A DNA stretch of 24,000 nt from NCBI GenBank assembly GCA_938036785.1, contig CALHWE010000011.1:1-24000 (forward strand), in the 5' to 3' direction. Origin of the DNA: an uncultured Candidatus Saccharibacteria bacterium. Lineage in GTDB: Bacteria > Patescibacteriota > Saccharimonadia > Saccharimonadales > Saccharimonadaceae. A program made the translations under genes and the position numbers. Positions within the stretch are counted from its first letter, which is position 1; every line of letters begins with the position of its first letter. Positions 8,985-20,514 of this stretch are shown here, in pieces. Below the pieces are notes generated by a model that saw nothing but the letters and a program-made list of their open reading frames with translations, had not been told where the DNA came from and did not search any database.

Positions 8985-10573
8985 TGCATGAGACTATAGA
9001 GCGTAATAATGATGAGGTTGGATGATACTACTGCGCGCGGATATGCTTCTTACTTCCGTCGTTTTTCAAATTTTGAGGATGAAGAAATCCGCTTTGTTCT
9101 TTGCGCGCTATTGCAGCTTTTATATTAATAACCCACTCAAACTATCGCGCACTGCAGCATACTATTCTTCATTCGCACACGTTGCTGGAAGCTAGCAGGA
9201 TATTCAAAACACAAGACAGCTCAGCCAAGCATATAGTATATATAACAAAAATTGAGTGGGCATCGTGATAGCGAAATATCTTGCACGTATGGCTGTGCCG
9301 CATCACCAACAAGCTGCATATTCACCCTCCCGCAAAAGCACTACACATAGCAAAACACGATGCCACTGCGGCAGATGCTTCGCATAGCGAGTCAGCCTGT
9401 CTGAATAAAAAATTGATTTTGACAGCATCACATTTTTGCAAGCCAAGCGTGAGTATTTGTGTATGCCACATGGTATATTTCGCATCCTCGCTGCACATAG
9501 ATGTGCAAGAATGTATCGCACCATATTTTACTTTTATGCGTGTTTTGCAAAATTTGTATGGGCCATCTGTAAGCAGTTCTAGCCGCGATAATAAACAATT
9601 CATTTTTGCACAAATCTACAAACAATGATTATTTTTATCATCAACCGCTCATTCGCGCAGCCTATACTTCGCAGCAGCATATCGCCTCGCTATAATTTGC
9701 TCAGTATGCAAAAAACCAAAAATGAAACACCCTCCAGCCAGCCACAACAAACTTGCACGAAAAAGCAAAAAATCAAAAATACTCAAACCCAAAAAATAGA
9801 CGCGCCGCACAATGATCACATTTTTTATCACGCAGCAACAGCTCCACGCATCATGTTGCTAGCAGTATTTTTTTACGTGAGTGTGCTCAAGCCAAACGCG
9901 TAGCTTCGCAGCAACACAACAAAAAATTGTGTTCATTATTTTTAAAATACTTATGTTTACTTTGGTACGTTTTGTATTATGCCCTATTGCCATAAGCGTT
10001 ATTATATTGCTAAAGATAAATGCGCGTTTGTAACGAAAATTTGTTCATTTATGCTTATGGTTACTGTGTTTATCCTGGGTGTAAGCATACGTGTGCGTGC
10101 TCCATGCCGCACGAAACAATCGTTGAGTTTGGCACATCGTTGTTGTGCTCACTATATCCTTCTAGCTGCCCTGATGTTGTTTGTACATCACTATGCCTAT
10201 TCCTTCCTGTTGTGCTCGTATCATCGTTTTGCTCAATTGCTGTACTTCCTACGACGCTCATATTCCGAACGTTCGCCAGGTATTCTCTGTTTCTGTTCTG
10301 TCTTTTTTACAATGCCTTGTATATTTCGGCATCATCCTCGTTGCAGAGAGCTGTGTTGCATTCTTTACAATAATATCTCGATCCTATCGAGCTTGACGAC
10401 GCGCCTCATGTATTGGTTATTACAACATTATGTATGCCCTTTTTCTTGCGCGTACCATTCAGCAAAAACACAGCGCGCTCATAAGCTTGTGCTCAAAATT
10501 GGCAAAAATCGTCTCTACTCTACGTTGTTTTTATCACATCTCTAGGATGCTCCAGCCTGGGCATCACGCGGCA
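8985..10573. other. AT-rich, ORF-free tract A, depleted in G on the + strand (about 1.6 kb)
   Basis: No credible ORF. The track ORFs here (for example 9979-10545) translate to Cys/His/Phe/Leu-rich junk. Three hand-counted lines (9301, 9721, 10261; 180 nt) give A63 C53 G22 T42. Confidence 0.8.
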
Positions 10574-11543: not shown

Positions 11544-11993
11544 TTAAAATGGTATTTCTGATAGGTCAATTGGCTTGTCGTCAATGTCTTCGATGACGAC
11601 ATCCTGGCTGCTACCACTGTTAGTTGGCGCTGCGGCCGGTGTTGTATTTCCGTCAGCACGTCCACCACCAACGAAGGTGAAGTCCTCTACTGTTACTTCT
11701 ACAACAGAACGCTTGTTGCCGTCCTTATCGTCGTAGCTGCGCTGGTCGAGGCGACCACTAACGAGTAGCGGACTACCCTTCTTTACATATTGTGCAATGG
11801 TTTCGCCAGTCCGCCCCCAGGCTACACAGTTAATGAAGCTGGTTTGGTCTTGGTTTTGGCCATTTTGGTTGCGCCATGTACGAGTGACCGCTAGTGTAAA
11901 ATTCGCAACGTTCTGCCCACTTGCTGTGGTGCGCACCTCTATATCGCGCGTCAAATTGCCCATCAAAATAACTTTGCTAAATCCTCGAGCCAT
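11544..11993 (-). CDS. ssb: Single-stranded DNA-binding protein
   Basis: The OB-fold N-terminus MARGFSKVILMGNLTRDIEVRTTASGQNVANFTLAV, a Gly/Pro-rich linker and the acidic tail DDKPIDLSEIPF. GAGGAGG Shine-Dalgarno sequence. The gene sits between rpsF and rpsR, the classic order. Confidence 0.95.
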   Translation of the reverse strand: MARGFSKVILMGNLTRDIEVRTTASGQNVANFTLAVTRTWRNQNGQNQDQTSFINCVAWGRTGETIAQYVKKGSPLLVSGRLDQRSYDDKDGNKRSVVEVTVEDFTFVGGGRADGNTTPAAAPTNSGSSQDVVIEDIDDKPIDLSEIPF

Positions 11994-12386: not shown

Positions 12387-12461
12387 ATGTAAACCTCCTT
12401 TGGGATCCATATGGATGTTTATCCGGACGATAAACTTAGGTTAATAACGCATTATATTATA
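12387..12461 (-). promoter_or_regulatory. rpsF promoter (overlapping TATAAT boxes at 12451-12461) and a leader of about 60 nt containing a hairpin
   Basis: Minus strand reads CGCGTATAATATAAT...GTTTATC-gtccg-GATAAAC (perfect 7-bp stem, 12417-12435)...AAGGAGGTTTACAT-ATG. The loop contains CCG. Confidence 0.55.
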
Positions 12462-12469
12462 CGCGAGAC

Positions 12470-15313
12470 AGCATGCAAAGTCTAGCGAGGTACAGGGGTG
12501 TGGAGGTGTTGTGCTTTTTAGTTTTTCTATTTTTTGAATGGTCACATACTCTGTGTAATTATAAGTTGTTAGTTACCTCATTCGCCGCATGATTGCACCC
12601 CGTCTTGCAAGCACTTATCCATCCTGCCATAAGCCAAGAAGTGGCATGACGCGATCATATGCTCTATCCGCATTTCACAAAAAAGATAATTACATTATGG
12701 CGCTACAATTCGCTTGCTTCGCCCCATCACTATCCTTAATATATTATGCCCATATATTATATATAAGCCCAGCAAAGCACCCTTTAAACGCTATCGCATC
12801 TATAAAATAATACTTGTTATATGTCAAAATATGAAAAATGAACCACCCGTACTTGTCGTGTATATATTACTTTGTCTTTCGCTCTTTTAGCTCTTTCAAT
12901 GCTGCGATGTATCTATAAAAATTATCGAGCCAGTTTTCGCTTGTGCTTATTTCGCTATTGCTTCTGCCTAAAGCGAAGTATTGTTTTGCTGTCTCCTTGC
13001 GCATTTTTGTCAGAGCCACCTATAGCACTCCATGGGGCCATTATGTCTATCTCATTTTTGCACACTACTTACATAGAGCCAGCTGCCCCGCCTCCATACA
13101 TCGTACATGCAGGTCGATATTTTGCCATTTGTTTCCATACCATAAAGTACTATATAATGCAAAACGTGAAAATTTTGAAACCTTCATTCGTACCATCAAC
13201 GATGCATCATTATTTTTTATCCAAGCCATACATCGCACCCTATTAGATCGTGTATATGTAATAACCATAACCACTATATACTGCTTGTGTTTGTCGCACA
13301 TTCGCCTACATTTAACACACAATTAGCCACCTACGCTCAAAAATATGAAAATAGCACCATGCTAACCCACTCGCTGGATCATATACATCACACTCCATTC
13401 ATTTTTTGACTTCGCACTCACACTCTGAGGTTGTTTTATACACCTAATGCTTTGCTATACTAATTATGCCTATCTCACCATCAACTATCCTTTGCTTGCA
13501 TTATGCAACCGATCATGAAAATTTGCTATGCTATCGTATTGGCATGACGCAGACGCAAATCCAGCTATCACCACATCCTCACAAATCACCCTCTTAGCCA
13601 CAAAGTTACTCGCGCCTACCATACATTTTGGCTCACCAATGCCTACTATTTTTGACCCTCGTCGCACCCATCTGCTTGGTTATGCAAATTTTACTACCAA
13701 GCCTATCGTTGAATAATTTTCTACTGTTTTCATACATCCTCTCCGCACCAATTGTACATCGTCATACCTCGCGGTACACAAAAATCTCACCCCTCACACC
13801 ATCATCGCATCGCACTATTTCAAAAATCATCATTTTTTATTAGCGGTCAATCAGCTGCTGCCACACATGCTTCGCATATCATACACATCTCACCAAAATT
13901 ATCACATTCTTTCGGCACGCACAAACCATCATTGCTTCTTGGCATTATATTTTTGCACTACTTTGCCAGGCTGAGTTTCATTATTCTCCAAATTTTTATT
14001 ATGAACATCATTATGTTTCGTTCATAAACTTTAGCGAGGCGGCCCATTACTTAATTCGCTTCTTGCATCACATTCAACCTTCTTGTGTTCGCACGCGCCG
14101 CACAGATTTTAGCCAGAACATGGCAGCCATTTACTCAAGCGAACTCACTCCCTACTTTATCTCACAACCTCACATTCATTTTTGCATATTTCCCTAATCA
14201 AAAATGTGAAATTTTGCACTGCTACTACACGCACTTCATTTTTATTACACATGTTGTACGTCGCTCCTCTATCTTTCTATCTCGCTGCGTCAATTTTTGC
14301 ATACTCATTCACAAATTTGCACATAGGTGTGCACACTGCCATCATCCTCATTTTATATTTACTACCAAACAACCCATTCTTATATCATTCATCACTCACA
14401 TAGTAGCAAAAAATATTTTGCACGCACATTATGTTGCAAAGTTACGAACGTTTTTGCTAGACGTCGCTAATTTTTTAGCAATAGCAAATAGTGCATCAGC
14501 GTTTTTTATTACAGCGTCGCAATGCTATATTATTTTTGTCATGTATGTGCTATCTGCTTGCCACTCCGGTTTTCGAAAATAATCGTTTTTTCACAGCAAC
14601 GCACTTCTGTCATTTTTCTACGTGCAAAATTATAACTACATATATCGTGTACCAATCAAAATAGACAAAAAATAATATTTTGCTGCAGAATAATTATTAA
14701 TAATGTATTTCCCACTCATATTTCTGCAAACCACTTTGCAAAAATATCTTTACTACTGCAAAAAGCTGCTCGTCGCTTTGCATTATACTTTGCCGTTTTC
14801 TCATCTTTGACTTTTTGTATTTCAATTCATACCGCACTCGTCGCTTATTCGTTTCGCGCCCGCTCAATTTCTCATCAATATAGCGGCAATAAACTGTATG
14901 AACGAATTATTATAATATTCATATTCTCTCACTGCCCCCTCGCTTGTGTTATGTGTAGCATCATATACAAAAAAGATATATTCGATGAAGCAATCGACTC
15001 ACTTTGCATACAAAATATTCATTACGATACACTATATATAGTACATTATCATATCTATGCTTTTTAAATTTACCATTCACCGCTCTGAATATATTCATAT
15101 TATATTCAGACATTTCCTTGCTCGTTTTCAGGCAATTTATAACATACAAGTGCGTCAATATAGCACACAAATATCTCCTCGCAGTACGAGAAATGCATTA
15201 TTTTCGTCACAACGCACAACATTACACCAACCAATACACGCGATCCTTAAAAATTCAATGGCATAGCACGTGCCCTTGTTTATTCTTTGCAATCACCATA
15301 GATTTTTTGCACA
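12470..15313. other. AT-rich, ORF-free tract B, depleted in G on the + strand (about 2.8 kb)
   Basis: No credible ORF in six frames. I hand-counted 126 G in 1,080 nt (about 12%). Five fully counted lines give A76 C91 G31 T102. There is a 64-nt run with no G at 14339-14402. TTTTGCA-type motifs recur throughout. Confidence 0.85.
13453..13461 (+). promoter_or_regulatory. Orphan extended -10 promoter TGCTATACT inside tract B
   Basis: The 13-mer TGCTATACTAATT (13453-13465) is identical to the pheA promoter (20693-20705), and its first 10 nt match the ychF promoter (6151-6160). No credible gene lies downstream. Confidence 0.4.
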
Positions 15314-15314
15314 G

Positions 15315-15338
15315 AAAAACCAGTGCTCATCACACTGG
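15315..15338 (-). terminator. Rho-independent terminator of the 247-aa gene
   Basis: Minus strand reads CCAGTG-tgatgag-CACTGG followed by TTTTTCT. It lies 25 nt after the stop at 15363. Confidence 0.7.
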
Positions 15339-15362
15339 CTTTCTCTCGTCTATAACTAGCCT

Positions 15363-17206: not shown

Positions 17207-17620
17207 TTAGTTACCCTCCTTCTTGGCGCCGTACTTGCTGCGGCCTTGCTTACGCTTCGATACCCCTTGTAGGTCGAGCGCGCCACGGACGATGTGGTAG
17301 CGCACACCCGGGAGATCCGGCACACGGCCACCACGGACGAGCACCACCGCGTGCTCCTGCAGGTTGTGGCCTTCGCCGCCAATGTATGCCCAGACTTCGT
17401 GGCCGTTAGTGAGGCGGACACGAGCCACCTTGCGCATAGCGGAGTTTGGCTTCTTGGGGGTCTTGGTCGTTACCTTGACGCAGACGCCACGCTTGAGCGG
17501 TGCATTTTGGTCGTAGTAGCGCACCTTGAGTGCGTTGTGGATGCGCCCCAGCGCTGGCGACTTCGACTTCCGAGCCGCAGTCTTGCGTGGCTTGCGCACC
17601 AATTGGTTGATGGTTGGCAT
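17207..17620 (-). CDS. rpsL: 30S ribosomal protein S12
   Basis: From the ATG at 17620: [24 protein letters not shown]...[20 protein letters not shown] is canonical S12. AAGGAG lies 7 nt upstream. The track ORF starts 14 codons earlier with no support. Confidence 0.95.
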
Positions 17621-17832
17621 GCAATTCTCCTTATTGCTTATTGTTCGGCTTCTATCGCTCACCCCACTGGTTGGATCAGTAGTGCGACCATAGAAGTACC
17701 TGCTACTGGGCTCATAGCCCAGCGTTTATGTGTACGATTATGGAGCAGCACCTCCGCCTCGTGTCTATACCTTCTCCGCCAGGTAGCGCACTCACACCAG
17801 CGCCCCACCCCGAGAAGAGGAAACTCGTGGGT

Positions 17833-17862
17833 ATTATAGCACAGATAATTATGTTGAATCAA
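17833..17862 (-). promoter_or_regulatory. Sigma70-type promoter of rpsL-rpsG, implying a 5' leader of about 200 nt
   Basis: Minus strand reads TTGATT (17862-17857), an 18-nt spacer, then TATAAT (17838-17833). The leader at 17621-17826 is GC-rich and includes a perfect 7-bp hairpin CTGGGCT-atg-AGCCCAG (17706-17722). Confidence 0.55.
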
Positions 17863-17952
17863 TTGCGCGCGCGTGATACAATACTAAATGTTAACGTACC
17901 ATGATGTACAATTAACTCAAGAAGCGTCTCTTATGGGCGCTTTTTGCGTATC

Positions 17953-18450
17953 TTAGAGTCGTTTATATGATCGATTGTACCGTCTCTGCATATCTTTCTT
18001 GCAATAGCTACGATTTAGTGTATACGCAGTCACCATAATTCCCGCTACTGGCCTTGTTTTACTACGCATCCGTCGCAATATTACAACAAAATCTATATCT
18101 GCAAGCCATAAATACAATGTATCCCCTTTTGGGTGCTTGTCCCAAAAAGCCCTTACTTCTGGTTCTTTATAGTTCTCTAGTATTGCACGCACCCAAGGAA
18201 GCCGCGTCGCTCTATCATAGTCAATCTTTCGAAGCTTCTTACCGCATGTAATAATGTGAGTAAAACCCTTTGGGTAAAAACCTCCCCAGGATGGATCGGG
18301 GTGTGAATTTGTATAAACAGGTAATCCATCAACAATCGGTGGTGTTGTCTTAAGAAAATCATGCTCATACACAGCAAACAATTTTTTTATATCAGCCTCA
18401 TATGAATTACTAGAGAGCTCTAACTCTAGCGGTAGCCATTCTGGTATCAT
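17953..18450 (-). CDS. Hypothetical basic protein (165 aa), translationally coupled to the DUF3800 gene
   Basis: The ATG at 18450-18448 shares one nucleotide with the upstream stop (TGATG). The track ORF uses an upstream TTG at 18468. GC is low. The C-terminus is very basic (KKDMQRRYNRSYKRL). I recognise no family. Confidence 0.6.
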   Translation of the reverse strand: MIPEWLPLELELSSNSYEADIKKLFAVYEHDFLKTTPPIVDGLPVYTNSHPDPSWGGFYPKGFTHIITCGKKLRKIDYDRATRLPWVRAILENYKEPEVRAFWDKHPKGDTLYLWLADIDFVVILRRMRSKTRPVAGIMVTAYTLNRSYCKKDMQRRYNRSYKRL

Positions 18451-19172
18451 CACTCGCGCGGTTCCCAAAAGAATAAATTGAACTTTTCAGTGCTAGGCGG
18501 TGTACCACTTGTCAGCTCTTGCTGAGTAATTTTTTTTAGAAATGCTACTAACTCCTTTTTTGCTTCTGATTTCTGTTGGTTACTTGGTTTATTTGCATAC
18601 ATTACTGCACCAGTCACAAGGTCGGCCAATTGTAAACCTATCACCTCATGTGAACACAATGGTTGTGCTGTAAAATCTTTATCTTGGAACTTCGCTGTAT
18701 TTCTCAAGTATCTTGCTAACTCATGTGACCTATGCCCAGACCAGGTATCTTTATAGTCTAAAAATAACCGCAAACTGTGCGTAGATGTACTCTTTTCAGC
18801 AATATTACGCACCAAGTAGTATTGCATTTTATAATAAAAATCATCGCTTGTCTCGTTGTGAGCTTCATAATTAACCTTATTTTTATCAATCACTACTGCT
18901 CTGTAGCTGACTTGATCAGTTTGGTGCAACAACAATAACAAATCTTTATAGTATTCAATTTTTGATGGGCTCACCTTAGTCCACTTAATCTCACGGTGTG
19001 AAGATATCTTATGTTTCTTTTTAATACACTTAACTTCTCTAAGGAGCATTGGCAGCTGTTTAGTATTTAGCCAAACTGCACCAAGAAGCATCTTGCCAGA
19101 GCCATGCCCAATGTGACAAGATTCATCAATATAGACATATGTAGAATATTCTTGATTGTGTATATTTCTCAT
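18450..19172 (-). CDS. DUF3800-family protein (240 aa)
   Basis: N-terminal STYVYIDESCHIG matches the family's hhh-D-E-S-G-like motif. C-terminal VIGLQLADLVTGAV matches its LQ-x-A-D motif. GC is low, about 35-40% in two counted lines. Confidence 0.7.
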   Translation of the reverse strand: MRNIHNQEYSTYVYIDESCHIGHGSGKMLLGAVWLNTKQLPMLLREVKCIKKKHKISSHREIKWTKVSPSKIEYYKDLLLLLHQTDQVSYRAVVIDKNKVNYEAHNETSDDFYYKMQYYLVRNIAEKSTSTHSLRLFLDYKDTWSGHRSHELARYLRNTAKFQDKDFTAQPLCSHEVIGLQLADLVTGAVMYANKPSNQQKSEAKKELVAFLKKITQQELTSGTPPSTEKFNLFFWEPRE

Positions 19173-19180
19173 ATACTTTC

Positions 19181-19186
19181 ATTATA
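19181..19186 (-). promoter_or_regulatory. -10 box TATAAT, 8 nt upstream of the DUF3800 ATG (leaderless)
   Basis: Minus strand reads TATAAT-GAAAGTAT-ATG(19172). Confidence 0.45.
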
Positions 19187-19325
19187 AATACACTTACAAG
19201 CATTGCCAATAGTAGCACAACTATGTAGTGTCGTTAGTGTAATGCCCGTAATACTCTGAAGAAATGAATTTAAGTCTATAAGCCCTCCCTGCTTCCACCA
19301 TTACTACAGCAGTAATCAGCGAATG

Positions 19326-19334
19326 TGTTACACT
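19326..19334 (+). promoter_or_regulatory. Extended -10 promoter TGTTACACT, 7 nt upstream of the transporter ATG (leaderless)
   Basis: Sequence reads TGT-TACACT-CATTATT-ATG(19342). Confidence 0.45.
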
Positions 19335-19341
19335 CATTATT

Positions 19342-20514
19342 ATGAAACAAACTATTGAAAAGGTAGGCTTGCTGAGCCTGTCGCTTATACTTACGTCGTC
19401 TGCTGCCATTGCTCCGGCCATTCCGGCAATGAAGGCATTTTATCACCAGTTTTCGAGTACACAGGTAGAGCTAATCTTGTCTATTCCGTCGCTGTTTGTC
19501 ATCGTGACGCTGCTGGCTAATCATGCAATTCGCCGCGTGCTGTCGGAGCGACACATCATTATTATCAGCCTCATTCTCATTCCGTTGGCTGGTGTAGTGC
19601 CATTTTTTGTTCAGGAGTATTGGTTAGTGCTGGCTTCGCGCGCAGCCTTTGGTGTTGGGACGGGGCTCATCAACGCGGTTGCTATCACCATCCTCAGTGA
19701 TTATTACAGTGGCCGAGAGCATGCGCAAGTACTGGGTTGGCGCGTCTCTGCCGAAATCATTGGCTGCGCGCTGCTCACCCTGCTGGCTGGGCAGTTGATC
19801 AAAATTAGCTGGATGCACGCCTTCTTGATTTATACAGCCGGGCTCGCCATCCTTGCTATCTTCCTCACCTGCGCCCCACGGCAACAACCACGTATGCCCA
19901 CCAAGCCTACCAAGGCAGAGGATGCTTCGCCAACCGCTCATTCGCTGAGCCGCCAGCAGCTTGGCACCGTCATTGGGCTAACACTGTGCGGAGTATGGTT
20001 TGTCTGCATCGATACATCGCTGGCACTGCGCCTGCCTGAAATCACTATTGCAGCGGGTTTTGGCTCGGCCACAGACGCAAGCATCATCCTCAGCCTCAAG
20101 CAAATCATGGGGATCATCGCTGGTGCAGTATTTGTCTATGCCGTGAGTCGGTACAAGCAGCGGCTCTTGGCATTGTCTGCTCTGCTAATTGGTATCATTT
20201 TGTTTGGCTTGTCGCTATCGCCAACGATCTGGCTGCTTGGCCTTTCGTCCTTTGGGGTTGGCTTCGTCTATAGCATTATTCTCTCAACGATATTCCACCG
20301 ATTGTCAGACGAAGTCTCCGCACAATCGCGCAGCACAGCCACAGCAATTGTCCTCGTTGGGTGCAATCTCGGTGGTGGCAGCGCACCATATGTTTTGCAG
20401 CTGTTTTCGTGGTTGGGCGCTCGAGGGCTGGCAGTCTTCGCTTGGTTTGGAGTGTTGTCTATGTTGATTGGCGCAAGTCTCTGGTTCTTTCACCGCTACA
20501 CACGTAGCCGATAA
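19342..20514 (+). CDS. MFS-like multi-pass membrane transporter (390 aa)
   Basis: About 12 hydrophobic segments split by a central hydrophilic loop (PRQQPRMPTKPTKAEDASPTAHS). The segment AAFGVGTGLINAVAITILSDYYSGREHAQVLGW resembles the MFS TM4-TM5 region. The substrate is unknown. Confidence 0.65.
   Translation: MKQTIEKVGLLSLSLILTSSAAIAPAIPAMKAFYHQFSSTQVELILSIPSLFVIVTLLANHAIRRVLSERHIIIISLILIPLAGVVPFFVQEYWLVLASRAAFGVGTGLINAVAITILSDYYSGREHAQVLGWRVSAEIIGCALLTLLAGQLIKISWMHAFLIYTAGLAILAIFLTCAPRQQPRMPTKPTKAEDASPTAHSLSRQQLGTVIGLTLCGVWFVCIDTSLALRLPEITIAAGFGSATDASIILSLKQIMGIIAGAVFVYAVSRYKQRLLALSALLIGIILFGLSLSPTIWLLGLSSFGVGFVYSIILSTIFHRLSDEVSAQSRSTATAIVLVGCNLGGGSAPYVLQLFSWLGARGLAVFAWFGVLSMLIGASLWFFHRYTRSR

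Follow-up and report, generated by a model that had tools for sequence, protein, structure and literature searches.

A 24,000-nt stretch of contig CALHWE010000011.1 from an uncultured Candidatus Saccharibacteria bacterium (hereafter, the window) carries a compact cassette of ~1.36 kb in all, with three parts: gene A, encoding a DUF3800 protein; gene B, encoding a small basic protein; and a candidate small RNA gene that converges on B (Table 1). By their matches to profile models, the proteins encoded by A and B are members of a catalogued candidate defence system, PDC-M04. We infer, at somewhat less than even confidence, that the cassette is an RNA-restrained nuclease immune module, of an abortive-infection or toxin–antitoxin (TA)-like kind, and that phages counter it with RNA decoys. 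The protein pair was already known as PDC-M04; the small RNA and its copies on phage contigs go beyond that description.

Both proteins match the PADLOC-DB models of this system, A as PDC-M04A (E = 6e-65) and B as PDC-M04B (E = 3e-28), and neither matches any other PADLOC family. PDC-M04 corresponds to cassette CAS_00034, with 679 instances (Payne et al. 2024, bioRxiv 10.1101/2024.01.29.577857), and the PDC systems are 145 candidates recognized through 'guilt-by-embedding' in BREX, DISARM and Type I restriction-modification loci (bioRxiv 10.1101/2024.01.29.577857). A literature search for PDC-M04 by name found nothing. The initial annotation, made from the letters of this DNA, had described two coupled low-GC (guanine plus cytosine) genes forming a pair not known from any characterized system, and had suggested a PADLOC search; the genes stand at the coordinates then given, the search identifies both proteins, and the pair is already catalogued. 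It also recurs in other genomes: in 31/31 genome loci with a B homologue, mostly from Saccharibacteria but including one Clostridia bacterium and two Helicobacter, A is the gene immediately upstream and has the same orientation. The same arrangement is seen in loci L045, L063 and L065, and in L067, where B is frameshifted; more distant A homologues, too, are accompanied by a B-like gene.

In the window, where the cassette is flanked by a major facilitator superfamily (MFS) transporter gene and rpsL, A and B are joined as initially annotated, by the sequence TGATG at 18452–18448, in which the A stop codon TGA (18452–18450) and the B start codon ATG (18450–18448) have one base in common; with the alternative GTG start of B at 18453, the overlap is 4 nt. 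The pair has its own strong promoter of the sigma-70 type, an 11/12 match to the consensus and the top-scoring promoter-like site of the region. Because its −10 box ends 8 nt before the ATG of A, with no Shine–Dalgarno sequence, the A–B messenger RNA (mRNA) appears to be leaderless or nearly so, as had been proposed. A TATAAT-type box lies 6–9 nt 5′ of the A start codon in 14/14 Saccharibacteria and Clostridia cassettes examined (measured from the second in-frame ATG in L027), and leaderless expression therefore looks like a property of the cassette.

The pair is compositionally foreign. Its GC content is 0.383 over 17923–19186 (0.368 for gene A and 0.404 for gene B), compared with a mean of 0.487 for the window, in which 5.5% of equal-length windows are as low, and the GC content at third codon positions is 0.349 in A and 0.331 in B versus 0.48–0.75 in the housekeeping genes of the window. 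Exact calculation thus bears out the low GC content first noted, with a correction to rpsL, which had been put at about 70% GC and comes to 61.4%. In most hosts the pair has a GC content of ~0.38–0.41, with flanks at 0.37–0.53, and it falls below its flanks in 35/40 distinct loci. The pair region of the window is 99–100% identical to that of the uncultured Candidatus Saccharibacteria genomes L006 and L007.

The initial annotation treated the module as two genes; its third part, a small RNA gene in convergent orientation, lies between B and the rpsL promoter. Its predicted end lies 4 nt from the B stop codon, in a segment of ~110 nt 3′ of that codon that is conserved between cassettes whose B proteins are just 34–55% identical. 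An alignment of 15 cassettes, read on the strand opposite A–B, contains a TTGAC-like −35 box, a 17-nt spacer, a two-tier hairpin, a linker, a GC-rich hairpin and a U-run, and the extended −10 box TGnTAnnnT is invariant. In the proposed RNA structure, 90% of alignment cells are paired, versus 28–45% when partners are slid, and seven pairs change on both sides, giving a covariation score that 0/500 shuffles reach; the result is similar on 27 distinct sequences. Frequent G–U pairs (columns 18–31 and 51–61) become A–C mismatches on the operon strand, and the minimum free energy of the + strand is −19.4 kcal/mol (z = −3.6) versus −13.9 kcal/mol (z = −2.1) for its complement. A covariance model of the RNA, R1, finds the window copy at 17882–17948 (+) with 75.5 bits and scores 12 bits on the opposite strand. 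It gives one strong match (55–82 bits) per Saccharibacteria or Clostridia cassette, always convergent and 0–10 nt from the B stop codon; outside the training set, it finds the RNA at the same position in a Microsaccharimonas cassette (L063, 64.8 bits) and in the Bifidobacterium prophage Bbif-1 (19.4 bits, E = 0.003). A 'type-2' version of the RNA, CUCAUC..CAUGU..GAAGGAG, occurs in L045, L067 and Bbif-1, and the same two-tier hairpin forms when each of 18 diverse sequences is folded individually.

Could these hairpins simply be a bidirectional terminator of A–B, with no small RNA at all and with promoter-like hexamers that arose by chance or belong to neighbouring genes? Terminator stems covary trivially, and the region holds 4 promoter-like hexamers versus 5.0 expected from shuffled sequence. 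We nevertheless consider this account very improbable, because the spacing between TGnTAnnnT and the 5′ hairpin is constant in 15 cassettes whose flanks are unrelated, because the most conserved part is the 5′ hairpin, which is no terminator, because the match is strongly asymmetric between strands (75 versus 12 bits), and because independent stand-alone copies, described below, have promoters of their own.

The RNA is single-copy, with no tandem repeats in 17600–19400. Rfam 15 returned only tRNAs and chance matches, both at gathering scores on the window and 22 related loci and at E ≤ 10 on 17400–19600, on 17840–17965 and on a type-2 copy. No Rfam family matches the RNA, and no DUF3800-I to -XI, drum or skipping-rope family appears on it at E ≤ 10; this release includes DUF3800-I and DUF3800-IX. 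A known DUF3800 RNA motif was accordingly rejected as the identity of the RNA. Two further candidates were set aside. An encoded peptide is suggested by an open reading frame (ORF) of 22 codons in the window, but copies of the L013 type, inspected by eye, stop after 7 codons and have no start. Pairing of the RNA loop CCAU with a 5′ AUGG of the leaderless A mRNA was also considered; AUGG is present in 10/14 cassettes but not in that of the window, and there is no compensating change.

Given the layout, the small RNA might act only as a cis-antisense regulator in the style of type I TA systems, pairing with the 3′ untranslated region of read-through A–B transcripts and tuning mRNA stability with no protein contact. 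Overlap of convergent 3′ ends is a feature of Bacillus type I systems such as txpA/RatA, and here too the genes converge, with the RNA ending 0–10 nt from the B stop codon; moreover, the first hairpin of the operon strand is weakened by A–C mismatches and has no U-run, so A–B read-through is likely. This explanation is unlikely in our estimation. Plain antisense pairing needs no conserved structure, yet both hairpins covary, and the apical loop (ACCAUGUUG or CAUGU) hardly varies from phylum to phylum, whereas the identity of A and B falls to 34–40%. Further, copies of the RNA occur in phage tRNA arrays with no A–B mRNA in cis, and such stand-alone copies point to action in trans.

One stand-alone copy lies on L071, a 13-kb phage contig with genes for the large and small terminase subunits, from which A and B are absent. 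At 11894–11959 (−), this contig has a full copy of the small RNA (74.5 bits) with a TTGACG / TG-TACTAT promoter and a terminator. The 24-nt type-2 hairpin is found on at least 120 viral contigs (L087–L206). Among the matches listed, 35 viral contigs have A–B beside the hairpin, convergent in 33 of them, and 85 have neither A nor B in the fetched locus; on the side where A–B would lie, the sequence extends for at least 1.5 kb in 59 of these orphans, which represent 57 distinct contexts. A tRNA gene lies within 500 nt of 41/85 orphans among the matches listed, on the same strand in 40/41, compared with 0/35 cassette-linked copies. Other orphan type-2 copies have TTGACA/TATAAT promoters of their own, as in L104 and L116. 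A peptide-pattern scan of viral contigs for B returned nothing because its patterns are specific to Saccharibacteria-type B, and it was the hidden Markov models (HMMs) that found the 35 A–B pairs among the matches listed. Matches of viral contigs L079–L085 to an 18-mer of the loop were rejected as RNA copies, being chance matches inside a phage gene with no terminator.

These copies can also be read in the opposite sense, with the small RNA as a positive cofactor or specificity element, for example of an A–B–RNA particle that recognizes phage transcripts, and the copies in phage tRNA arrays as targets or processing signals that the particle senses. Many RNase-H-fold nucleases act with dedicated RNAs, and the orphan copies run in the same direction as the phage tRNAs, as an element processed from the array would. 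DUF3800 genes are, in addition, accompanied by 11 other structured RNA motifs (PMC5737381). On balance we find this improbable. The RNA has no variable guide-like segment, its 5′ leader and linker being just 5–8 nt; the L071 copy is full-length with its own promoter and has only terminase-region genes nearby; and decayed host loci keep the RNA after losing A and B, the reverse never being seen, as predicted for an inhibitor.

That order of loss emerges from close relatives of the window. We fetched 15 loci through the neighbouring MFS gene; in 13, all very close relatives, rpsL and the MFS start are both readable, and among these near-identical strains the pair is present between the two genes in 6/13 and absent in 7/13. 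Alleles L051, L057 and L059 align to window positions 17591–18038 and then jump to 19275–19360, losing all of A with its promoter and most of B (Table 1); what they retain is the small RNA gene and the 3′-terminal 86 nt of B. Allele L049 retains 17970–18038, and L053, L055, L056 and the more distant L060 retain 18034–18060 and 18085–18118. All fragments left in pair-less alleles belong to gene B. A clean empty site that would define insertion ends was sought and not found, 8/8 pair-less relatives having remnants. Homology with the window resumes at 17865–17869 in pair-less alleles, and every deletion ends just outside the rpsL −35 box (17862–17857). Since B remnants remain at the site in all pair-less relatives, the pair is ancestral there and was lost through at least three different deletions. 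The 'insertion' of the initial annotation is therefore better described as a variable accessory cassette, old at its site and in places reduced to fragments of gene B.

No intact Saccharibacteria or Clostridia cassette was seen to lack the small RNA, and four decayed loci (L047, L051, L057 and L059) keep it in the absence of A. An RNA that outlasts A is what would be expected if it restrains something harmful, although the sample is small. In three further loci, L025 (9106–9597), L012 (5851–6943) and L067 (4680–5171), B or the A/B junction is broken by a stop codon or frameshift with A and the small RNA remaining, and these appear to be decaying cassettes.

The initial annotation likened the pair to an anti-phage or TA-like module, and in other genomes the pair does lie near known defence genes, in restriction-modification, DISARM-like and retron clusters. 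Embedding in or beside defence genes is seen in L035 and L036 (Type I restriction-modification), in L014, L015 and L037–L044 (DrmD-like helicase and Type III restriction-modification) and in L065 (Table 1). Neighbourhoods vary, which indicates that the pair moves as a unit. In the island of L037–L044, also found in L019–L026, a KilA-N protein matches another candidate, PDC-S22 (E = 2e-106), and 786 nt lie between B and the reverse transcriptase of a type VI retron (L037 7496–8280, and the same in L038–L044 and L019–L026). This interval holds the small RNA, repeated GTCAATAG motifs and presumably also the retron msr/msd. In phage Bbif-1 (L062, GQ141189.1 ~35650–36170), the B homologue lies 3′ of the 'RlfA phagic protein' (BBP_0971, DUF3800) with no GenBank gene annotation, and a literature search for the name 'RlfA' gave unrelated abbreviations only.

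A non-immune cassette would be either a selfish addiction module or a pair of genes for nucleic-acid processing, dispensable to the host and carried along in variable regions. The housekeeping flanks in the window, the non-defence contexts of L004, L045 and L063 and the frequent loss of the pair are all in keeping with this. It is harder to reconcile with the repeated placement of the pair between restriction-modification subunits and beside DISARM-like and retron genes in unrelated hosts, with its presence in a prophage (Bbif-1) and with the RNA copies on phages, which imply a role in phage–host conflict; we accordingly think a non-immune role quite improbable.

Protein A matches Pfam DUF3800 (PF12686) with 44.2 bits against a gathering cut-off of 21, over residues 12–192, confirming the family named at the outset, and both signature regions then cited, YVYIDESCH and LQLADLVTGAV, are found in it. 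A search found 2,732 homologues of A. Among 35 homologues, the invariant residues are D16, E17, E61, K63, W64, R91, D139, K141, D142, S174, E176, Q181 and D184, which include the N-terminal D-E (D16-E17) and the C-terminal QxxD (Q181-L-A-D184). An AlphaFold2 (AF2) model built from 35 sequences (predicted local distance difference test (pLDDT) score of 92; predicted template modelling score of 0.90) has archaeal RNase HII (1eke) and human RNase H2A (3puf) as its best Foldseek matches in the PDB (E = 3e-6, probability 1.0), at a template modelling score of ~0.5 and ~10–12% sequence identity; at the sequence level, A matches no PDB chain. Protein A is thus predicted by modelling to have an RNase HII/H2-like fold, in line with the RNase-H-like resemblance suggested initially. 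The invariant carboxylates D16, E17, E61, D139, D142, E176 and D184 fall on strand 1, at the end of the strand 133–139 and on the helix 178–193. Retron-linked DUF3800 proteins have been modelled on the same templates, with D-E and QxxD motifs described (PMC7736814), and independent modelling gave an RNase H fold for a CRISPR-linked DUF3800 (PMC10910872), with a related DUF3800 model showing a rearranged catalytic site (PMC10910872). We take A to be the putative effector nuclease of the cassette.

Protein B is less readily classified. Its family comprises 937 cluster representatives (50% clustering, E ≤ 1e-3), all of ~160–170 aa, with D31, D52, F63, H65, T68, R74, D77, Y78, R80, W86, Y113 and W115 invariant and conserved aromatic residues abundant. 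The C-terminal third is strongly basic, and the basic tail initially described is evident in the last 42 residues, which hold 13 K/R versus 1 D/E. B matches no Pfam or NCBIfam profile; its AF2 model (pLDDT 89) matches no PDB fold below E = 1e-3, and the sole BFVD match of the model is an uncharacterized siphovirus protein.

Taken together, these features suggest the following mechanism for the RNA-restrained module. The leaderless operon would make A, an RNase HII/H2-fold nuclease with its conserved carboxylates intact, and the translationally coupled B. A would be the effector, cutting RNA or RNA:DNA hybrids, and the constitutively made small RNA would keep A inactive, probably while bound by the basic B. 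Infection would disturb the small RNA, for example through transcription shut-off, decay or competition, and so release the nuclease; the decoys of phages would be the stand-alone copies of the RNA, in many cases expressed as part of tRNA gene arrays. The closest precedent for a phage RNA look-alike of a defence component is phage pseudo-ToxI acting against ToxIN (PMC3475682).

Several observations weigh against this proposal. In the window, the cassette lies between the MFS transporter gene and rpsL, outside any defence island, and the anti-phage role of PDC-M04 itself stands at candidate level. Transcription of the RNA, its binding to A or B and toxicity of A–B are all predictions from sequence, and an RNA-binding domain is not recognizable in B by Pfam, PDB fold or BFVD searches. 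The covariance model detects nothing in the Helicobacter loci or in L065, where the elements present are similar in architecture alone: the former show a comparable two-hairpin layout, nothing more, and L065 has an analogous unit of another shape (TTGACA, a 16-nt spacer, TATAAT, an RNA of ~75 nt and a strong terminator abutting B). The orphan status of copies on viral contigs was assigned with two HMMs and depends on the length of sequence fetched, and the phage copies could be targets or processing signals instead of decoys. Finally, repeated loss fits a costly immune gene and any dispensable gene equally. A more far-reaching claim, that PDC-M04 is the founding example of a new class in which an RNase H2-fold toxin and an adaptor protein are restrained by a two-hairpin RNA and neutralized by phages across several phyla with decoy copies expressed from their tRNA gene arrays, is possible but doubtful; it would, for the first time, offer a function for the eleven orphan 'DUF3800' RNA motifs of 2017.

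Table 1. Positions of the cassette, its control elements and the deleted segment in the window, and gene orders at related loci (MTase, methyltransferase; RT, reverse transcriptase)
Feature	Position	Strand	Basis or detail
Gene A (240 aa, putative effector nuclease, PDC-M04A)	18450..19172	-	ORF, Pfam and PADLOC
Gene B (165 aa from ATG, basic partner protein, PDC-M04B)	17953..18450	-	ORF and PADLOC
A–B operon promoter	19181..19209	-	-35 TTGGCA 19209-19204, 17-nt spacer, -10 TATAAT 19186-19181
Candidate small RNA, ~62 nt	17888..17949	+	Covariance model, covariation and folding
Small RNA promoter	17854..17882	+	-35 TTGAAT 17854-17859, 17-nt spacer, extended -10 TGaTACAAT 17874-17882
Small RNA 5′ two-tier hairpin	17890-17916	+	Apical loop CCAUGAUG
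Small RNA terminator hairpin	~17918-17946	+	U-run 17941-17945; short linker before hairpin
rpsL promoter (neighbour, outside cassette)	17833..17862	-	TTGATT, 18-nt spacer, TATAAT
Segment missing in L051, L057 and L059	18039..19274	.	All of A, its promoter and most of B gone
Helicobacter locus L035			Order HsdM, A, B, HsdS
Locus L014			Order DrmD-like helicase, A–B, Type III MTase
Loci L037–L044			Order DrmD-like helicase, A–B, retron RT_VI, MTase_III, PDC-S22, Res
Locus L065			Order Res-MTase-A-B
Bifidobacterium prophage Bbif-1			A annotated 'RlfA'; B without annotation
Loci L004, L045 and L063			Housekeeping neighbours

The small RNA promoter adjoins that of rpsL. In the palindrome TTGAATCAA (17854–17862), the −35 box of the small RNA (+) overlaps the −35 box of rpsL (−), and the two divergent promoters may therefore compete. 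A good terminator is lacking in the A–B operon itself, and its transcription probably continues into rpsL. Between the rpsL promoter and start codon is a 5′ leader of ~210 nt (17621–17832, −, GC 0.54) with a perfect hairpin, CTGGGCTCATAGCCCAG, at 17706–17722; the leader is conserved in all related loci, has no Rfam match and may be a ribosomal-protein leader. In L065 (5290–5360), a 32-bp perfect palindrome, CAAAGTAGCTTATTATGTCAAGTCGTGTTTCA / TGAAACACGACTTGACATAATAAGCTACTTTG, overlaps the −35 box of the small-RNA-like unit and adjoins a gene for a 61-aa HTH_17 protein, of which it may be the operator.

Two other stretches of the window are low in GC. One, longer than the pair region and even lower in GC, spans 12450–15360 and is flanked by rpsF (S6) and by a gene of 247 aa that matches no Pfam family; its ~2.9 kb have no convincing ORF on either strand, a GC content of 0.36–0.40 and a + strand GC skew reaching −0.39. 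Gene calls over the equivalent segment of a matching contig (L001) give one 58-aa ORF in 3 kb, and 12450–15360 contains neither an Rfam match nor a repeat array. In a Saccharibacteria genome, small as it is, a gap of this kind is unusual. A second patch at 9000–10550 (GC ~0.40–0.42), with ORFs at 9281–9628 and 9979–10545 that have no Pfam match, may likewise be of foreign origin or in decay.

DUF3800 is a large family whose members are accessories in retrons, CRISPR–Cas12 loci and restriction systems. If the proposed mechanism is true, the cassette would represent a new, RNA-controlled form of abortive infection and supply a new reason for odd small RNAs in phage tRNA arrays. The alleles at this site document gain and loss of candidate accessory immune genes in very small Saccharibacteria genomes. 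With three delimited parts in a compact 1.36 kb and with natural phage copies, the cassette makes the question of DUF3800 and RNA directly testable.

Among catalogued systems, PDC-M04 shares with the cassette both protein models, the gene order and the tight coupling, and relatives of the cassette lie within restriction-modification systems of Type I and Type III and DISARM-like systems, in agreement with the study by which PDC-M04 was defined. It differs in being defined as two protein genes, with the small RNA and phage copies outside the definition, and the cassette of the window is not embedded. The DUF3800-I to -XI motifs are 11 unrelated structured RNAs that neighbour DUF3800 genes, pointing either way and often ending in a Rho-independent terminator of their own (PMC5737381). 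The cassette likewise has a structured RNA with a terminator beside a DUF3800 gene, and from its sequence the small RNA looks like a further DUF3800-associated motif, specific to the A+B subfamily.

Type VII retrons (PMC7736814), likewise found in a defence context, have a DUF3800 effector for which RNase H2 was the modelling template and which acts with a non-coding nucleic acid, but the retron DUF3800 has no Q of QxxD, which is invariant in the A family. No reverse transcriptase ORF was found in the window or in gene calls of the same locus, nor any Rfam retron match, and the cassette is therefore not a type VII retron; the reverse transcriptase beside the pair in L037 belongs to a separate type VI retron unit. 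RNase HII/H2A is the best structural match to A, with the D-E pair on the first strand and later aspartates in the same order, at low identity (~10–12%) and with no sequence-level PDB match. The TPR (tetratricopeptide repeat)-DUF3800 proteins of Cas12a2/Cas12a3 (PMC10910872; bioRxiv 10.64898/2026.01.16.699850) resemble A in that DUF3800 is an accessory of an RNA-centred immune system, whereas the cassette has no TPR domain, CRISPR array or cas genes. Type I TA systems share the convergent RNA layout only: the proteins here, of 240 and 165 aa, are predicted to be globular, and there is no small hydrophobic toxin peptide.

The last comparison is with ToxIN, a type III TA and abortive-infection system. 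ToxI is a tandem-repeat array upstream of toxN that is processed by the toxin, in contrast to the single convergent RNA with no tandem repeats seen here; A has a predicted RNase H2 fold that is not of the ToxN/AbiQ type; and B, which matches nothing solved, is an extra protein. With no repeat array and no ToxN fold, the cassette falls outside type III TA systems as they are defined. Both nevertheless pair a protein nuclease, putative in the case of A, with a dedicated small RNA, both have RNA look-alikes in phages, and ToxIN is phage-defensive; by analogy, the cassette would work most like a type III TA or abortive-infection system among those known.

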